DNA from: Patescibacteria group bacterium
Lineage (GTDB): Bacteria; Patescibacteriota; Saccharimonadia; Saccharimonadales; CAYUUR01
Direction of reading: 5' to 3'
NCBI GenBank assembly: GCA_052034685.1
Contig: JBPOIH010000002.1
Coordinates: forward strand, 7,738 to 71,737
DNA length: 64,000 nucleotides
Shown here: piece by piece, positions 1-60,634 of the stretch
Layout of the letters: every line of letters starts with the position of its first letter
How positions within the stretch are numbered: the first letter of the stretch is position 1
Position numbers and translations under genes: made by a program
Notes under the pieces: model-generated
Databases searched by the model: none
What the model was told of the DNA's origin: nothing
Seen by the model: the letters and a program-made list of their open reading frames with translations, nothing else

Positions 1-99
1 ATATTTAGTTTCCTCATCTTTTCCTTTAAAACCTTCTTATCGTCAAGTTCGTCCTGTTTAACAACCCGAGACTCGTGGCTTTTCATCAAGCTCTCCATC
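1..99 (-). CDS. 5' end of a CDS that continues beyond the window (MESLMKSHESRVVKQDELDDKKVLKEKMRKLNI...). It may be the frameshifted continuation of the upstream sensor gene.
   Basis: ATG at 99 (rc), preceded by AAGAGAG. The frame is open to nt 1. It starts 11 nt after the stop of 111..1220. Confidence 0.35.
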
Positions 100-7233: not shown

Positions 7234-7749
7234 TCACTTAGAAACTACTTTGTTAACCGCACTCCGCAATTTGCGGTTGCTCAATGCATAGATTGAGGTT
7301 AGCAATTCTAAATCACATCCATTCAAATCATTTGATGTTAGATTATTCTTTGGCCTAAAGATTGTGTGACCATACCTCAATATAATGCTTGTTATCAACG
7401 ATCTTTTGATAAGCTCTACGTTTACATCGGATGGTTCCGTAACCTTTTCTTCTATACCTAAAGTATCCGGGTTGATTTCACTGTTGAAGGCACAAGACTG
7501 TGGTATTTGCTCGAGGTTAGCCTTGGTAGCAACAAAAGAAATCTGTCTGCCCTGTGAGTCGTAAAGTTTAAAGTCGACATCCAGGATTGCTGTCCCGAAA
7601 TTATACACGTATTCAATGCTGTCGCTTATCTCATCGACAGAATAACCATCTTTATAACGATCAAGAAGGTAGTAGGGAGACTTTGTGTGGGAAGCTGCCA
7701 TGTTCATCATCTCCAGAATAACAAACTTCGCATAAATGAGTGTAACCAT
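7234..7749 (-). CDS. Hypothetical protein (171 aa) in the inserted segment
   Basis: ORF only, visibly more AT-rich than its flanks. An internal GGAG-ATG alternative start lies near 7701. Confidence 0.45.
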   Translation of the reverse strand: MVTLIYAKFVILEMMNMAASHTKSPYYLLDRYKDGYSVDEISDSIEYVYNFGTAILDVDFKLYDSQGRQISFVATKANLEQIPQSCAFNSEINPDTLGIEEKVTEPSDVNVELIKRSLITSIILRYGHTIFRPKNNLTSNDLNGCDLELLTSIYALSNRKLRSAVNKVVSK

Positions 7750-7807
7750 TCTATCGTACTGATTATCGCAAATTAAATACTATTGATATCGGGTCACTAT
7801 TATAAGC

Positions 7808-8224
7808 TCATTTTATGGACGTTTGTTGCGACGAATATGGCTCAAAATGTCGTACTTTGACAAGTGAACTTTTCCTCTTTAATAGCGCATTAATATTAAA
7901 CTTCTCTTTACCGACCTGCACTTTGTACGAGGTATGCTGTTTATCATACTCGTGAATTGTTATTTTTCCAGCAACCACATCATTAATTAGCTTTCTAAGA
8001 CTAGGGGCGAGTCGTTCAGGATGTTTTGGATTCTGGAACAATTCGATGGTGTAAGTATCATCGAAGAGGACTAGGGCTGTCCAGGGCTCAACATCAATTA
8101 CAATCTTACATGCATCACTGTTTAAAAGAGGGCTTACTTCAAGCCTTCCATCCGCACACTCAACTCGCGCCTTGTCTTCAAGGTTCTTTTTTAACTCCAA
8201 ACACAACTCGTTAAATGCTGTCAT
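7808..8224 (-). CDS. Hypothetical protein (138 aa) in the inserted segment
   Basis: ORF only; small soluble protein. Confidence 0.5.
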   Translation of the reverse strand: MTAFNELCLELKKNLEDKARVECADGRLEVSPLLNSDACKIVIDVEPWTALVLFDDTYTIELFQNPKHPERLAPSLRKLINDVVAGKITIHEYDKQHTSYKVQVGKEKFNINALLKRKSSLVKVRHFEPYSSQQTSIK

Positions 8225-8315
8225 TATGTATATGCTTCACTTTAATATATGATGGTTTATTGGAGATGAGAGTGGCTTTCATTGTTGTGGCTAGAATCTG
8301 ATAATAGTTATCATT

Positions 8316-17990: not shown

Positions 17991-18129
17991 AATACCCCTC
18001 CAGTTATTTATATAGCTTCAGTATAGCCTACTGTTGTTAAGAATGGAATATGTGCATAACCTCTTGTCAATAACAGAGGTATATGCTATGATTTGACGGT
18101 TATTTTCGTCCGTGACACCTAAGGTAACC

Positions 18130-18147
18130 GGGCCAGTGGCTCAGCTG
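18130..18147 (+). other. Orphan 18-nt copy of the tRNA-Lys 5' end (17/18 identical)
   Basis: gggccagtGgctcagctg against tRNA gggccagtAgctcagctg. It does not continue into a foldable tRNA. Confidence 0.6.
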
Positions 18148-18251
18148 CCCTGTCCGAGGCTTCAGCCGAGTAAAGTTATTAGCACCAGGTGCTCTAACCA
18201 CTCAAACTGAACTTTCGCAGATAAAACAAGCTTGCACCTTTCATACATCAT

Positions 18252-18359: not shown

Positions 18360-18385
18360 CATTGGTCGTCCGGAGCGGCTCGGTT

Positions 18386-18544
18386 CCTCGACTTGGCTGC
18401 TTTAGCAGACAAAAGTCGAGGGTTCGGTCACAAGGAGCTCTCGCAGATGCTTGCATCGAGAAAGCAACGCAGTGTGCATTGCCCCTCCTGCCTTGTTTTC
18501 ATAGACGAAGTTTCGGGCCGGCTGAAAGTCGGTCGAGTCCCTCC
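18386..18544 (+). repeat. tRNA-linked structured element E1 (a family-A unit plus a 3' fragment of a family-B unit)
   Basis: It shares about 85% identity over its first 45 nt with the element after tRNA-Pro. It contains GTCGAGGGTTCG (identical to the tRNA-Lys T-arm 5' part), CCCTCCTG-CC and TCGAGTCCCTCC (tRNA-Lys 3' part mimics). Confidence 0.65.
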
Positions 18545-18588: not shown

Positions 18589-18966
18589 ATGAAACGTGGT
18601 GCTTTTGCGGTTATTCTAAAGGGAGATAAGCTTCTATTTGTTAAACCCCCTGATTGGGTATCGCAATTTAGTGGCCATTGGAATTTTCCTGGAGGAGTTG
18701 TCGAACCTGGCGAGTCTCTTGAGGAGGGGGCAAAAAGAGAAGCTTTTGAGGAAACAAACATCGTGTGTGAAATAGAAAGCCTTTTGATGACCGATCACAA
18801 CGAAAAATTCGACACATCCATAGCAATATTTAAAGCAAAGTACATATCTGGAGAAGTCACAATTCAACCAGAGGAAATATCAGAGGCAAGATGGATGACA
18901 ATTGAAGAAGCCCTTAATGAGCCTCTCGCCTTTGACATCAAGCAGGCGTTACTAGCTTTAGCCTAA
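18589..18966 (+). CDS. NUDIX hydrolase
   Basis: Nudix box GGVVEPGESLEEGAKREAFEETN. Confidence 0.85.
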   Translation: MKRGAFAVILKGDKLLFVKPPDWVSQFSGHWNFPGGVVEPGESLEEGAKREAFEETNIVCEIESLLMTDHNEKFDTSIAIFKAKYISGEVTIQPEEISEARWMTIEEALNEPLAFDIKQALLALA

Positions 18967-19022: not shown

Positions 19023-19080
19023 GTGCGTTGCCCCTCCGACCAAAAGTTTCGGGCCGGCTGAAAGTCGGTCGAGTCCCTCC
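19023..19080 (+). repeat. Element E2, a direct repeat of the E1 3' part
   Basis: 19044-19080 is 37/37 identical to 18508-18544. 19023-19037 matches 18474-18488 with 1 mismatch. Confidence 0.85.
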
Positions 19081-44895: not shown

Positions 44896-44957
44896 AGTAG
44901 CGCTATGGGGCAACGGTGCTGCGCCACTTACTCGAAGCGAGCTTCTGCGTGAGGTTT

Positions 44958-45080
44958 ATGGGGATCGGTCACGTTCCGCGACCCCGAAACTTCATCTTTG
45001 AAAACAAGTTTTCAAGAGAAGGTTTCCTTGCAAAATGCCATCAGGCATTTTTCACCCACGACAGTCGTGGGTTCGTTCAC
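44958..45080 (-). repeat. tRNA-linked structured element E3 (family B), downstream of tRNA-His
   Basis: Five hairpins whose arms covary with the copy at 48321..48470. It ends with GATCCCCAT, identical to the tRNA-His T-loop/T-stem 3' part. Confidence 0.65.
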
Positions 45081-48292: not shown

Positions 48293-48320
48293 AAAGTAAT
48301 CATATCAAACAAATGAGTAA

Positions 48321-48470
48321 CAGGGATTCGACCTACCTTTGGCAGGCCCAGAACTTCTGCCATGACAACAAGTTGTCGGGTGAAGATTCTCTTGCAAACT
48401 GCAACCGGGCAGCTTTCACCCCGACCCTTGGGGTCGGGAGCTCGAACCACTTAGATAGACAACTCAAAAA
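48321..48470 (-). repeat. tRNA-linked structured element E4 (family B)
   Basis: Homologous to 44958..45080 with compensatory hairpin changes. It ends with TCGAATCCCTG (tRNA-Arg(TCT) has TCGAATCCTGC). Confidence 0.65.
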
Positions 48471-50776: not shown

Positions 50777-50827
50777 AGTGCAATTATAACAAAAGACGTC
50801 GGGAAGGACGTCTTTGTGACTGGCTCG

Positions 50828-50993
50828 TGGTGCGGGTGGAGAGACTATCTGATAAATCAGATGCACCGGCAGCGCATGCTCGGAGCAAGCTCCTGTGCGT
50901 GCACTTTGTCTTCGAACTCGTGCTACGCCCAGTAGAGTTCGATTACTTGTTCACATACCAATCCTTTACTCTCGCGCAGCGAGAACAAAGGAT
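50828..50993 (-). repeat. tRNA-linked structured element E6 (family A-like), ending in an exact 17-nt copy of the tRNA-Gly 3' end
   Basis: 50828-50844 is identical to 50994-51010 (tggtgcgggtggagaga). Internal TCGAACTC...GAGTTCGA is an inverted copy of the T-arm, and there is a GTGCAT box. Confidence 0.7.
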
Positions 50994-54633: not shown

Positions 54634-57186
54634 TTATCTGGTAGCGATTGATGTCCTGCTTCTGACGGAAAACACCAATCCACCTACACTCAGTAATATG
54701 GCTACGGCAACTAGCGCGCTCGTTCTTGACGCTCCAGTATCGGCCAGGGTATTTGCTGGATCCTCACTGAGGTTGGTAAATGAAGAGAACTCTGAGGTAG
54801 AACCATAAATGTAACTCCCTTCAGCGGGCGTATACTCAGCAGCACTGACTGTGGGCATAAAGAAATCTTTAATCCGACTAACGACGCTGTGTTCAGGTGC
54901 CGCACTAGGAAGTATATACATGCCAAAACCTGGATCTCCTTCTTCTGGGATAAATGAATCGGTGGTAAGCAGTGTTGCGGTTGCAGAGATATTCACGTCA
55001 TCGCCCAGCGCTACATCGGTTACAAAGGTGTGTTCGGCAGCCGATTCATCTCCATTCACATAGAAGTAACCCAAGTGTGTTTTACCCTGCCCATAGCCAG
55101 ACGGGTCTTCACTGTCGTTTAGGTAAAAATCAAGCCGATAGCCAACAACGTCGATCGTCCCATCATCTTCCTTGGCATCAAAATCGTATACAACTTTCAC
55201 ATAGTCTTCACCATACACAGCGCTGGTTACTTCTGGGTAAGCCACGAAGTGATTAGCTTGCTCAGCGGGGTAAGTTGCTGGATCAGCAGTATTCTTGGTT
55301 GCTGGGCCAGTTTCTACATCGGCCACTCCGTCGTTATCGGTGTCGGTCGCCAAATTTATACCCAAACCGCCATTACTATGAATACTGTTCGGCAATATGG
55401 CGATATTGAATACGTCAGAGCCACCACACAGATATGTATCACCGTCGTACTCATCAAACTCATCATCGCACGTCTCATCAGGCTGGCTATATATCTGCAC
55501 ACCGTCCCCTTCGTTACCAGCAATTACGTTTTGCTCACCGGGATTATCGCCGCCGATTGCGTGATTAAAAACAGATACACCGCCGCCGCAATCTTGCGTG
55601 AAAATCTCGTTAGCTTGAACTCCTGCACCACCATTTCCATAGCCGTCAGCAACTTCTCCACCCACGTTTAACCCAATGTAATTCCCAGTTACGCGCGAGT
55701 TTCTGGTGACCGAACAGCCATCATTATAGATATGCACTCCGGCGTTTGTATTTGCGGAGATTACATTCCTGTCTTCAAGGCTATCCCCACCAATAACCGA
55801 AAAGATATCTGTGCCTACAGAATCTGTGTCTGTAAACACCTCAACCCCATCCGTACCGTTACCTGCCGGTTGACCGCTAGCGTCTAAGCCAATGTAATTC
55901 CCAGTAATCGTAGCGCCCTGTTGACGCACTCTGACGCCAGTATAATCATTACTATAGATAGTATTGTTGTGAATAACGGAATTGGCTAACGCTGAGACGC
56001 CATCCCTGTTGCCGTGTATCAAATTGTCACGAAGCGTGTAGCTCCCGCCATCCAAACCAGAGATATTTGCACCGAACAAAGAATTATCTCGAAGCGTGTT
56101 ATCTGATGCTTCTCCTGTACCATCAGATACAGATATGCCAGTCCCGTCGTTATTTGCAACTAGGTTTGAGGTTATCGTCAATGATGTAGATGAACTAGAC
56201 TGGATCCCCTCGGAACCATTACCGACACTATCGCCATTCATATTGGCACCAATATAATTGTTCGTGATAGACACGCTGTCTGCGCCGTTGACGCCTATCC
56301 CTTGATTTTCACAACCTGCGACAACATTATTATTTACCTGGCTCGTTGCTGCGCCTTCTACATAAATTCCTTGCGAATAATCTTCGCTATCCGTCAGCTC
56401 ATTCTGTCCGGTTTCGTCTGTGCAAAATAAATTGGACTCAACTACATAATTACTGCCCTCACTTACAATGAGTCTTTTTGCGAACAGGTTGTCCTCTATT
56501 GTGATGTTTGTACCGTCTCCGTTCACTGAATAGAGGTCCGCTGCGAAATTTTCTGCGAACGTCACGCCGTCTGTATCAGCCCCGAAATAGTTACAGCTAA
56601 TCACCATATTGGAGACATTGTCTCCAATAACTAGCCCATACACTTGATCGTTACCGTCAAGCCCAGCATTAACAATCCCCAACCCGGTTACAGATGAACC
56701 AGACGAGCCAGTTTCAAATCTCAGAATTGCAAGATTCACGTCAACATAGGTTAGGTCTGAGCCATCGATCACGATACGAAGGTCATGTGGGGTATTAGAT
56801 GCTGCTGGCAGCTCATCAGGTACCAAATCACCGCAAGATGCCCCTGTCTGGCTCGTACCATCCATACTGATCGGGGTTGTTATTTCTGGCAGAAAATCCA
56901 GTAGTGCAATAGTGTGTGGGCCCGCACCAGAAATAGCAAAAGTAATAGTATCAGATTCTGGTGTTGCGTTGGCTTCTTGAATCGCTGCCCGAAGCGTACA
57001 ATTGCCCGAACCATCATCGCAAAGACCATTACCGATATTGTCATCAGTGGCATCGAGTGTTGAATCAACTTCAAACGTCGCCGCCGAAGCTTTCATGGTA
57101 AACAAAAAAGTGGGCGTTATAACGCCTATAACGAGAATTACTAATGGCAGTAAATACCTGCTTTTTATTTTCACTTTGTTACCCAA
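54634..57186 (-). CDS. Sortase-anchored CSLREA-domain, right-handed beta-helix repeat surface protein (850 aa)
   Basis: Signal peptide, GNCTLRAAIQEAN, many NxIxGN-type repeats, and a C-terminal LADTG followed by a hydrophobic segment and RSRTSIATR. Confidence 0.8.
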   Translation of the reverse strand: MGNKVKIKSRYLLPLVILVIGVITPTFLFTMKASAATFEVDSTLDATDDNIGNGLCDDGSGNCTLRAAIQEANATPESDTITFAISGAGPHTIALLDFLPEITTPISMDGTSQTGASCGDLVPDELPAASNTPHDLRIVIDGSDLTYVDVNLAILRFETGSSGSSVTGLGIVNAGLDGNDQVYGLVIGDNVSNMVISCNYFGADTDGVTFAENFAADLYSVNGDGTNITIEDNLFAKRLIVSEGSNYVVESNLFCTDETGQNELTDSEDYSQGIYVEGAATSQVNNNVVAGCENQGIGVNGADSVSITNNYIGANMNGDSVGNGSEGIQSSSSTSLTITSNLVANNDGTGISVSDGTGEASDNTLRDNSLFGANISGLDGGSYTLRDNLIHGNRDGVSALANSVIHNNTIYSNDYTGVRVRQQGATITGNYIGLDASGQPAGNGTDGVEVFTDTDSVGTDIFSVIGGDSLEDRNVISANTNAGVHIYNDGCSVTRNSRVTGNYIGLNVGGEVADGYGNGGAGVQANEIFTQDCGGGVSVFNHAIGGDNPGEQNVIAGNEGDGVQIYSQPDETCDDEFDEYDGDTYLCGGSDVFNIAILPNSIHSNGGLGINLATDTDNDGVADVETGPATKNTADPATYPAEQANHFVAYPEVTSAVYGEDYVKVVYDFDAKEDDGTIDVVGYRLDFYLNDSEDPSGYGQGKTHLGYFYVNGDESAAEHTFVTDVALGDDVNISATATLLTTDSFIPEEGDPGFGMYILPSAAPEHSVVSRIKDFFMPTVSAAEYTPAEGSYIYGSTSEFSSFTNLSEDPANTLADTGASRTSALVAVAILLSVGGLVFSVRSRTSIATR

Positions 57187-60241: not shown

Positions 60242-60345
60242 TGGGTGAAAGGGCAATGCACATGAATCTGTGCGCCGAGCATCTCGGGCAACAGACTCAT
60301 GACCGAACCTGCGACTTTCGTCAGCTAAAGCTGCCGAGTCGAAGG
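60242..60345 (-). repeat. tRNA-linked structured element E5 (family A), downstream of tRNA-Pro
   Basis: Its first 45 nt are about 85% identical to E1. It contains GTCGCAGGTTCG and ends in CCTTTCACCC, both matching tRNA-Pro. Confidence 0.65.
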
Positions 60346-60370
60346 CTCGAGACTTAACTCTTGACCAATC

Positions 60371-60391
60371 AAAAAGCCCACATTGCTGTGG
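60371..60391 (-). terminator. Short terminator after tRNA-Pro
   Basis: On the minus strand: tccaca-gcaa-tgtggg followed by cttttt. Confidence 0.4.
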
Positions 60392-60401
60392 ACTCTTTGA
60401 T

Positions 60402-60478
60402 TGGTCGGGGTGAAAGGACTCGAACCTTCGACCTTGCGGTCCCAAACCGCACGCGCTAGCCAACTGCGCCACACCCCG
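60402..60478 (-). tRNA. tRNA-Pro(TGG), CCA encoded
   Basis: Hand-folded: CGGGGTG/CACCCCG acceptor, loop TTTGGGA, T-arm GAAGG-TTCGAGT-CCTTT. Confidence 0.9.
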
Positions 60479-60634
60479 ATGATGAACTTTTCACTTGTTG
60501 GGAATTGCACTAACAGAGGGAGATTATACCCGAAAACCATGCATCACGCCAGATGTTTCTATTTGTTGTCGTCTGTGACGTGTTGTACATGCTACTCTGG
60601 CGTAACACCGAGGGGTATGGGATAATACTGGCAG

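Follow-up and report, generated by a model that had tools for sequence, protein, structure and literature searches.

The stretch of DNA analysed here (hereafter the window) comprises 64,000 nucleotides (nt) of contig JBPOIH010000002.1 from a Patescibacteria group bacterium (assembly GCA_052034685.1), and homologs of its proteins are named Candidatus Saccharimonadales. ARAGORN called six tRNA genes in it, and Rfam agrees. Behind the tRNA-Pro(TGG) gene and a terminator lies E5, a 111-nt element in which pieces of the neighbouring tRNA gene recur in both orientations around two hairpins. The features of this locus, listed in the direction of the tRNA, are as follows.

60402-60478, minus strand: tRNA-Pro(TGG) (ARAGORN; Rfam RF00005, 65.8 bits), putative template of the E5 arms
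60365-60404, minus strand: terminator-type hairpin CCAATCAAAG...TTTTTGATTGG, recognised in the sequence and including the CCA of the tRNA (hairpin and T-run 60365-60401)
60243-60353, minus strand: E5, whole element, 111 nt
60338-60353, minus strand: antisense arm GTCTCGAGCCTTCGAC, inverted copy of tRNA-Pro nt 47-60 (13/14 matched)
60316-60337, minus strand: hairpin H1 with an internal loop, TCGG-CAGC-TTTA-GCTG-ACGAAA (predicted fold)
60304-60315, minus strand: sense arm S, GTCGCAGGTTCG, copy of tRNA nt 47-58 (11/12 matched), ending at T-loop nt 57
60254-60303, minus strand: cassette Z (family-A core), 50 nt, with GTCA, a long hairpin TGAGTCTGT...ACAGATTCA, then GTGCATTG
60243-60253, minus strand: T3, CCCTTTCACCC, containing CCTTTCACCC, identical to tRNA nt 61-70

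The stem of the terminator is flanked by an A-tract and a T-tract, and a linker of 11 nt separates it from E5. Within E5 the tRNA copy is broken in the T loop: nt 58-60 (AGT) are missing, and cassette Z, whose inner hairpin is CCGAG-ATG-CTCGG, stands in their place. T3 then covers the 3′ strand of the T stem and part of the 3′ strand of the acceptor stem. The sense arm is one base off tRNA-Pro and is identical to nt 47-58 of tRNA-Arg(TCT). In the orthologous E5 of a close relative (GCA_964603495.1, here L001; flanking HD-domain protein 95% identical) the antisense arm matches perfectly, as does the sense arm, which reads GTCGAAGGTTCG. The predicted fold of E5 is far stabler than those of shuffled controls (z = -4.4).

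A paralogous family-A element, E1, lies behind tRNA-Lys and its terminator, with its parts in the same order as in E5.

18377-18492, plus strand: E1, whole element
18377-18392, plus strand: antisense arm
18393-18414, plus strand: H1
18415-18426, plus strand: S
18427-18481, plus strand: Z
18482-18492, plus strand: T3
18508-18544, plus strand: module ‘B’ behind E1, the 3′ end of a family-C core, then TCGAGTCCCTCC (tRNA-Lys nt 55-66)

The two elements share a 43-nt block with 86% identity (blastn, E = 1.7e-9 within the window), and GTGCATTGCCC is identical in both. The 20-nt pattern GCTTTAGCNGACRAAAGTCG matches the window at the E1 and E5 sites alone, with 0.03 matches expected by chance. An earlier note, made from the letters of the window, had described E5 as a family-A element that mirrors tRNA-Pro the way E1 mirrors tRNA-Lys, with a covarying inner hairpin, outer arms that follow the neighbouring tRNA, a resumption of the 3′ part of each element's own tRNA and a likeness beyond chance. 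All of this is borne out, except that the antisense arm, given there as 8 nt, is a 14-nt inverted copy of nt 47-60. The order of GTCA, long hairpin and box after GGTTCG was likewise found as described; the box is not strict, GTGCATTG being replaced by GAACATTG in L001 and by GTGCCTTG in another relative, L134. A further family-A copy, which the note had called E6, was found neither by pattern nor by blastn searches, and the window holds two.

A second, identical copy of module ‘B’ lies 536 nt further on, at 19044-19080 (plus strand). The two make up a perfect direct repeat of 37 nt, with a gene for a NUDIX protein of 125 amino acids (18589-18966) between them. A similar pair, GTGCATTGCCCCTCC and GTGCGTTGCCCCTCC, lies near these repeats, and the whole arrangement resembles a gene cassette. 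An exact look-up of the NUDIX protein returned no identical record.

A script that sought sense and antisense copies of each tRNA in its own flanks found the same plan behind four window tRNAs, with the antisense arm at +49 to +51 and the 3′ copy at +148 to +160.

tRNA-Pro: antisense copy of nt 47-60 at +51; 3′ sense copy of nt 60-71 at +148
tRNA-His: antisense copy of nt 47-61 at +49; 3′ sense copies of nt 57-67 at +160 and of nt 61-71 at +217
tRNA-Gly: antisense copy of nt 49-59 at +50; 3′ sense copy of nt 57-75 at +148
tRNA-Lys: weak antisense copy (7 nt); 3′ sense copy of nt 60-69 at +153

The trailers of tRNA-Gly and tRNA-His follow the plan of E5 and E1 with other cores, and T-loop-split modules also occur at tRNA-Arg(TCT), after a small open reading frame (ORF) resembling a zinc ribbon. 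No element was found in the flanks of tRNA-Arg(TCG) in the window.

50828-50946, minus strand: tRNA-Gly trailer, with antisense arm AATCGAACTCT, sense arm GAGTTCGA, a cassette with an H2 hairpin, and the 3′ copy
44900-45080, minus strand: tRNA-His trailer, an antisense-TGT-sense fold-back, family-C core, CGATCCCCATA, then an H2-like hairpin and CCCCATAGCGC
48313-48470, minus strand: tRNA-Arg(TCT) modules, GGTTCGA, hairpin, CTGCCCGG; then a family-C core and TCGAATCCCTG

The 3′ copy in the tRNA-Gly trailer comprises the last 17 nt of the tRNA exactly, CCA included. Because the hairpin between tRNA-Gly and its trailer has no T-run, and a proper terminator of the trailer's own follows at 50792-50815, co-transcription of tRNA-Gly with its element is plausible. 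Two features go beyond the earlier note: trailers with unrelated cores have this design in common, and the 5′ arm, an inverted repeat, closes the partial copy off as a fold-back. Within the tRNA-Arg(TCT) trailer module, CTTTCACCCCGACC at 48413-48426 (plus strand) is an exact 14-nt copy of the tRNA-Pro 3′ end on the opposite strand. Read on the tRNA strand it is antisense to tRNA-Pro, and we estimate the chance of such a length in the window at roughly 0.03.

Metagenomes were scanned with a core-independent pattern, the T arm of tRNA-Pro, 45-75 nt and then its antisense. Of the 13 loci obtained, 11 carry an element, behind tRNA-Pro or behind tRNA-Met with the same T arm; the remaining two are L119, a tRNA cluster whose relation to the family is unclear, and L122, a convergent tRNA-Pro gene. 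Elements which the pattern did not demand were found behind tRNA-His in L128, with a 19-nt 3′ copy including CCA and its own terminator, and behind tRNA-Pro(CGG) in L124. Synteny look-ups through the gene of a YmdB-family phosphoesterase revealed an element in L134 (YmdB 77% identical) and a 5′-type copy in L133 (82% identical). Through the HD-domain protein, synteny led to more distant relatives without a tRNA at that place, and E1 is absent from L113 (flanking DUF5684 protein 65% identical). Saccharibacteria-like contigs of related uncultured bacteria, from metagenomes and assemblies, yielded at least 14 more elements, behind Pro, Met and His tRNAs; units measure 75-156 nt. Among 82 tRNAs in about 1 megabase of fetched DNA, an antisense arm of at least 11 nt at +45 to +60 was limited to this element class; control tRNAs scored at most 8 nt, with the exception of L122, which is explained by the convergent tRNA-Pro gene. 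The metagenome examples establish recurrence, not frequency.

The arms vary with the tRNA they accompany. The best match of the antisense arm, and likewise that of T3, was the element's own tRNA in 16 of 16 cases, with ties only where tRNAs have a common T arm. The T stem of the L134 tRNA-Pro, for example, is GTAGG/CCTAT instead of GAAGG/CCTTT, and its element has the antisense arm ..CCTATGAC, a sense arm beginning GTCGT, 3′ copies TCCTATC(ACCC) and the T3 TCCTATCACCC, which matches L134's own tRNA. In an alignment of three orthologous S-Z-T3 units, the L134 change appears as an A-U to U-A swap in the helix of S with T3. The point of interruption is also constant: the sense arm always ends at TTCG (nt 57), the 3′ copy begins at nt 59-61, and the tRNA copy is interrupted after nt 57 by a cassette of 16-100 nt in all elements except L129. 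To account for this agreement of arms and tRNA, two options are left: a process that is templated or targeted, or selection on the arms to pair with the tRNA.

The cores are exchangeable. Different tRNAs within one genome have cores in common (Lys and Pro in the window; Pro and His in L128), and the same tRNA in different genomes often does not share its core. In the H2 hairpin an outer helix is followed by a 1x1 C.A mismatch and two G-C pairs; next come an RCA/GA internal loop and a helix of 4 bp, closed by a loop of CUUG, CUCG or UUCA. This fixed plan occurs at Gly, Lys (E1) and His in the window and in L120, L127, L128 (twice) and L134. The family-C core, of about 85-90 nt, was found splitting T loops at two window tRNAs, His and Arg(TCT), and in an L120 unit located upstream of tRNA-Pro. 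Module number varies as well: at the place of a single module in the window, L134 has two, an H2 type followed by family A. Covariation was observed in H1, H2 and the E5 hairpin, H1 being CAGC/GCTG in E5, CTGC/GCAG in E1 and ATTTTGC/GCAAAAT, ATTTTCC/GGAAAAT and others in metagenome relatives. A MAFFT alignment of all 5′ modules mis-aligned two H1 types, and pairs were counted per subfamily and by script.

Among four-base hairpin loops in the flanks of these tRNAs, CTTG or CTCG occurs 10 times on the tRNA-sense strand and CAAG or CGAG 0 times; CUYG loops are a class of stable RNA tetraloops. The E5 hairpin of three orthologs has four one-sided changes, all keeping G.U on the tRNA-sense strand, and one compensatory pair, U-A to C-G. 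Between the window and L001 the following differences were counted.

E5: 6 of 111 nt
Linker plus terminator (60353-60401): 0 of 49 nt
tRNA-Pro: 0 of 77 nt
Third codon positions of three adjacent genes: 36%, 20% and 7.5% different

By these counts E5 is better conserved than synonymous sites nearby. Constraint on E5 is suggested and not proven, since the divergence is mosaic along the region.

Mirror-image copies of the 5′ type, upstream of tRNA-Lys and of tRNA-Pro in L133, had not been remarked on in the earlier note. The copy in the tRNA-Lys leader (18128-18205, plus strand), behind a promoter-like site at 18064-18092, consists of a sense copy of tRNA-Lys nt 1-18, an insert of about 31 nt, TTAGCACC and a 15-nt antisense copy of nt 17-31. 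This 5′ mimic is kept in L112, which belongs to the same close relative as the contig L001, and in L113, where it follows L113's own tRNA sequence; it occurs at tRNA-Lys alone among the tRNAs examined. A predicted fold of the leader with tRNA-Lys pairs the mimic with the tRNA (z = -4.8). L133 (9545-9746) has a partial 5′ copy of tRNA-Pro (nt 1-26) split at nt 26/27 by a family-C core and ending in a perfect fold-back (GGTTTGG followed by CCAAACC), after which come a second promoter and the real tRNA. Because this copy carries its own duplicated -10 region, it argues for duplication at the DNA level.

The style of terminator seen at tRNA-Pro recurs after tRNA-Lys, tRNA-His and tRNA-Arg(TCG), the last of which has no element. 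In all four, the CCA of the tRNA pairs with a downstream TGG (CCAAT...ATTGG), and the stems flanked by A- and T-tracts have a bidirectional look. The tRNA-Pro terminator of L134 has the same stem-loop and 3′ half as the window tRNA-Arg(TCG) terminator (AGAGTCGTCCATTTGGACGGCTTTTTCATTGG). On the other side of tRNA-Pro, a conserved hairpin with a CTTG loop (GCAAACTTGTTTTGTCGGC) stands upstream of the gene in the metagenome contigs L120 (2010-2060) and L127 (3505-3535), both on the minus strand, and perhaps belongs to a conserved leader.

Searches against known classes of elements were negative. No tRNA was called in E5 or E1 (60243-60353 and 18377-18492) by ARAGORN, or by Rfam to E 10. Rfam 15, applied to the whole window at the gathering threshold and to both loci and five metagenome loci to E 10, gave nothing beyond tRNAs and microRNA-like hairpin noise far below threshold. 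E5 had no blastn match in phage and plasmid collections, and the tRNA was the one match of window positions 58-64 kilobases (kb) to phages. The earlier note had allowed that the shared blocks might belong to a known terminator or to the repetitive extragenic palindromic (REP) family; neither a REP-like multicopy family nor an Rfam match was found, and a terminator scan detected none on the tRNA strand within E5, the long hairpin being followed by GTGCATTGCCC with no U tract. Neither do the elements look like REPs or miniature inverted-repeat transposable elements (MITEs), with two family-A copies in the window and a deletion of nt 58-60 instead of a target duplication. The genome-wide census of cores proposed in the note was run with the family-A pattern GACNAAAGTCGNNGGTTCGGTCA on 185,579 species genomes and gave four matches, all judged to be chance: three lie clearly within coding sequence, and none stands beside an element-carrying tRNA. 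By this search, in a collection that lacks the source genome, the exact family-A core is very rare.

Two classes resemble the elements in position. As in class C group II introns, the elements begin 5-17 nt after a hairpin and always in the orientation of the tRNA, but the element is 111 nt long and Rfam group II intron models gave no match to E 10. As at integrase attachment (att) sites, there is a direct copy of the tRNA 3′ end of 10-19 nt (10-11 nt in E5; 17 nt with CCA at tRNA-Gly), but the block of identity is not contiguous, being split after nt 57, except in L129. Inspection by eye showed no clear boxes of the GTTRRRY type found in integron attC sites, and the window yielded no integrase.

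Some narrower readings were tried and dropped. A resemblance of GCUGACGAAAGUCG...GGUUC to a hammerhead or to group II domain V was given up, since the stem is perfect in L001 without a bulge and has no Rfam match. An origin by reverse-transcription snap-back does not suit an antisense arm that copies an uninterrupted T loop, or the L133 copy, which holds a promoter. The opposite strand as a primer-binding site was dropped as there is no retroelement context, and the idea that the antisense arm might be a sense copy, now degenerate, of the 3′ half of the T arm was dropped because the discriminating positions fit antisense (17/17 in L124).

Viral contigs were searched with four patterns. The H1 pattern gave one unrelated match, and the antisense/sense pair one match in a coding region; the loose ‘B’ pattern matched 97 stretches, which were not inspected singly, and the architecture was present at none of their tRNAs. 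The H2 pattern gave one match, in L131, which is suggestive and within chance expectation. L131 is an IMG/VR contig with terminase and NADAR genes, and its positions 829-1981 form a 1.15-kb non-coding region that contains the H2-like hairpin (1384-1410), three GAGCGTAGCGA repeats and GGTACC iterons. The GAGCGTAGCGA repeats are also present in the elements L117 and L128, and extra base pairs of the hairpin fit the family. The region could be an origin, an attP site or an RNA locus, and the match may be chance.

The genes near the elements are often of accessory or defence type, including NUDIX, P-loop kinase, NADAR, GmrSD, DUF3800 and a pPIWI-associated nuclease. In L001 (2561-3034) an extra gene of 157 codons lies directly upstream of tRNA-Pro and is absent from the corresponding window positions 60480-60580; by this sequence comparison, tRNA-Pro is the border of a variable segment. 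Window positions 54634-57186 (minus strand) encode a secreted-looking protein of 850 amino acids with beta-helix-type repeats, whose L134 counterpart matches NosD/Beta_helix, and several large ORFs nearby have no Pfam match. Two assemblies break inside tRNA genes: L112 at its position 1, at ...GGGTGTCG, the start of the tRNA-Lys T arm, and L133 in the D arm of the real tRNA-Pro. Repeats made of partial copies thus appear to fragment short-read assemblies within tRNA genes. In L134 a public gene call (7687-8313) begins inside the trailing element (ATGTGCGCTCGCAAAG...), and elements may cause false or over-extended ORF calls.

The elements form a real and apparently undescribed family, so far only in Saccharibacteria-like DNA, and its anatomy, tRNA tracking, covariation, strand bias, conservation and distribution are observed. 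As to what the elements are, we tentatively prefer, as a reading that falls somewhat short of probable, fold-back-capped partial copies of tRNA genes that are split in a loop by exchangeable hairpin cassettes, would have spread at the DNA level and would fold as RNA on the sense strand. Each unit reproduces part of the final third of the tRNA gene beside it (nt 44-76). A hairpin cassette breaks this copy in the T loop, past nt 57, and an inverted copy of nt 45-62 caps its open 5′ end to give a fold-back hairpin. The cassettes (family A, H2 type and family C) would be the mobile or exchangeable part, and the arms would be templated by the local tRNA. Most likely, part of the tRNA gene would first have been duplicated in the DNA, and cassettes would then have been copied and pasted from one T-arm-like sequence to another, via a dedicated enzyme encoded elsewhere or via microhomology at the conserved GGTTCG...TCC flanks. 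An origin and spread at the DNA level are suggested because of the duplicated -10 region in L133, the repeats that bracket a gene, the varying number of modules and the cores shared across tRNAs. The units would fold on the tRNA-sense strand and would probably be transcribed as trailers by read-through. Two mutually exclusive RNA pairings could then form, that of the antisense arm with S, a clamp that would leave the copied tRNA 3′ strand single-stranded, or that of S with T3, a T-stem-like helix closing the cassette. The mechanism of mobility, the transcription and any function we infer. The interpretation in the earlier note is supported in part: the arms are a tRNA 3′ copy interrupted in the T loop. 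The targeted insertion or templated copying that the note favoured would be a further step, for which no empty site, recombinase or intermediate was found.

Several points speak against this reading. Most elements stand behind a strong-looking terminator with no promoter match in between, so that transcription is unproven. Folding energies of whole elements show no consistent preference for the sense strand, H2 is slightly stabler on the reverse complement, where its conserved C.A becomes G.U, and many loops are of 3 nt (GAA, AAA and GTA within GCGNAGC), which is more typical of DNA mini-hairpins; GCGNAGC triloops form very stable ones. The arms (10-19 nt) are too short for ordinary RecA gene conversion, which leaves the upkeep of their match to the tRNA unexplained. 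No integrase, transposase or reverse transcriptase was matched by Pfam in 40 window ORFs (35 within 17.5-63 kb) or in 10 ORFs beside L124 and L129, several of the scanned ORFs having no Pfam match of any kind. Neither were an empty site, a circular form, a target-site duplication or terminal inverted repeats seen for the cassettes. Lastly, few elements were sampled, and the metagenome examples came partly from a pattern requiring the antisense arm, which biases their ascertainment for architecture, not for cores or 3′ copies.

A possible but rather doubtful alternative is a dedicated cis-acting RNA in the tRNA precursor, in which the trailer, and the leader of tRNA-Lys, would regulate or proof-read maturation by competing with tRNA helices, or would act as a decoy for a factor of the T arm or 3′ end, mobility being secondary. 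Invasion of tRNA nt 45-62 by the antisense arm is possible, as is pairing between the copied 3′ strand and the tRNA's 5′ acceptor strand. Such a role would suit the constant orientation and fixed distance of the elements, their CUYG-type loops on the sense strand only, the covariation of the hairpins and the conservation of the element. It would also suit the match of all three arms to the tRNA, which is more than internal pairing requires, the tRNA-Lys mimic downstream of a conserved promoter with its predicted pairing to the tRNA, and the position of the tRNA-Gly element between a hairpin without a T-run and a real terminator. However, strong terminators separate tRNA and element in most cases, tRNA-Arg(TCG) has no element and L113 lacks E1, modules differ in number and repeats enclose a cargo gene. 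Moreover, cores are more alike across tRNAs within a genome than for the same tRNA between genomes, which is unexpected for an old, vertically inherited regulator. It is conceivable, and in our judgement unlikely, that the cassettes are a new kind of small mobile element in bacteria, inserted into exposed tRNA loops by tRNA-templated or tRNA-guided means with no enzyme gene nearby, and that their RNAs could act on the cognate tRNA through the matched arms. Insertion would occur in the T loop, at A58 or at nt 53/56, or at the D/anticodon junction; part of the target would be copied or retained, and the cell would thereby keep an intact tRNA. If so, the cassettes would parallel, in bacteria, the transposition of tRNA introns in archaea, or would provide a guide-like RNA directed at the tRNA T arm.

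Classical site-specific integration would make the 3′ copies attR-type repeats and the cassettes arm sequences of related elements whose cargo has been deleted, and we consider this unlikely. Copies of the 3′ end of 17-19 nt with CCA occur at window Gly, L117 and L128 Pro and His, in L129 the copy extends over the complete T arm plus the acceptor end (an exact run of 24 nt, or about 30 nt if a 1-nt gap is allowed), and the copies at window Gly, L128 His and L129 have their own terminator. The sites adjoin the accessory and defence genes listed above (NUDIX, kinase, GmrSD, DUF3800, pPIWI-associated nuclease), the 37-nt repeat brackets the NUDIX gene, and the phage contig has an H2-like hairpin and GAGCGTAGCGA repeats in its non-coding region. 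Yet no integrase was found at any site examined, the identity block is split at A58, and an antisense arm is not predicted by integration. Scars should also decay, but E5 is conserved and the arms co-vary with the tRNA; the post-tRNA terminator style is genome-wide and not element-specific, and the phage match is within chance expectation for its pattern. An improbable alternative is a recombination site of folded single-stranded DNA in the style of integron attC or CTX-phage attP, where the antisense/sense hairpin would rebuild a duplex T-arm segment for recombinase-mediated pairing with the chromosome. Its stem does reproduce nt 45-62 of the tRNA gene, always those of the local tRNA, and the frequent GCGNAGC-type triloops, the energies without clear RNA strand preference and the cassette-like genes between repeats agree with this. 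No recombinase was found, though; by our derivation a CTX-like product would place the cassette beside an intact tRNA and not a partial copy, and RNA tetraloops are a better fit to the strand bias of the CTTG loops (10 to 0). It is very improbable that the likeness is due to chance, or to neutral local duplications that decay and have no origin in common. T arms are alike among tRNAs and partly palindromic, so that short matches arise easily, but the E1/E5 block (E = 1.7e-9), the 20-nt pattern expected 0.03 times, the lack of an antisense arm at any control tRNA, homologous cores in separate genomes and compensatory changes all speak otherwise.

Tyrosine-integrase islands and prophages leave direct repeats of tRNA 3′ ends (attL/attR), including P4-type repeats of 16-20 bp and crossovers in the T loop. 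The elements share with these a partial 3′-end copy downstream of an intact gene, sometimes of 17-19 nt with CCA, variable accessory genes nearby and related ‘ends’ at different tRNAs. They differ in the split at A58 by a structured cassette, the preceding inverted copy of nt 45-62, the absence of an integrase and a unit of 75-156 nt that is conserved and co-varies with the tRNA. In Thermoproteales archaea, similar introns at many positions of different tRNA genes have been interpreted as intron transposition. Here too, short related inserts lie in loops of different tRNAs (T loop, D/anticodon junction) with tRNA-specific flanks, whereas they occupy partial copies unable to encode a tRNA, with the intact gene alongside, in a bacterial host from which, to our knowledge, no splicing endonuclease is known; no bulge-helix-bulge motif was seen, and no search was aimed at one. 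Integron attC sites and the attP hairpin of CTX phage are recombination sites folded from a single strand. The imperfect hairpin with a stem mimicking a duplex target and the small cassette-like genes between repeats are similar, whereas here no R/L boxes are evident, no IntI was found, the elements are anchored at tRNA genes and the loop bias is towards RNA. Plant mitochondrial t-elements and mascRNA-type 3′ modules are tRNA-like processing signals. They resemble the elements as tRNA-derived sequence beside genes, with possible use of the tRNA 3′-end machinery; the elements have no 5′ strand of the acceptor stem and no cloverleaf, and Rfam tRNA and mascRNA models gave no match. REPs and bacterial interspersed mosaic elements (BIMEs), Correia, BOX and MITE-like repeats are likewise small, modular intergenic hairpins after genes and possibly transcribed, in contrast to which the present family has two family-A copies in 64 kb, no true core match in the 185,579 species genomes, tRNA-specific arms and neither terminal inverted repeats nor target duplications.

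Saccharibacteria live as episymbionts and their genomes are very small. Should the family prove real, a structured companion derived from the tRNA gene itself would stand beside many of the tRNA genes in these bacteria, and the elements mark borders of variable gene islands. It would make two questions testable. One is what keeps short sequences in step with a tRNA where long homology is lacking, be it targeting or templating, or else strong selection to pair with the tRNA. The other is whether tRNA maturation or protection in reduced bacteria proceeds via cis-encoded tRNA mimics.

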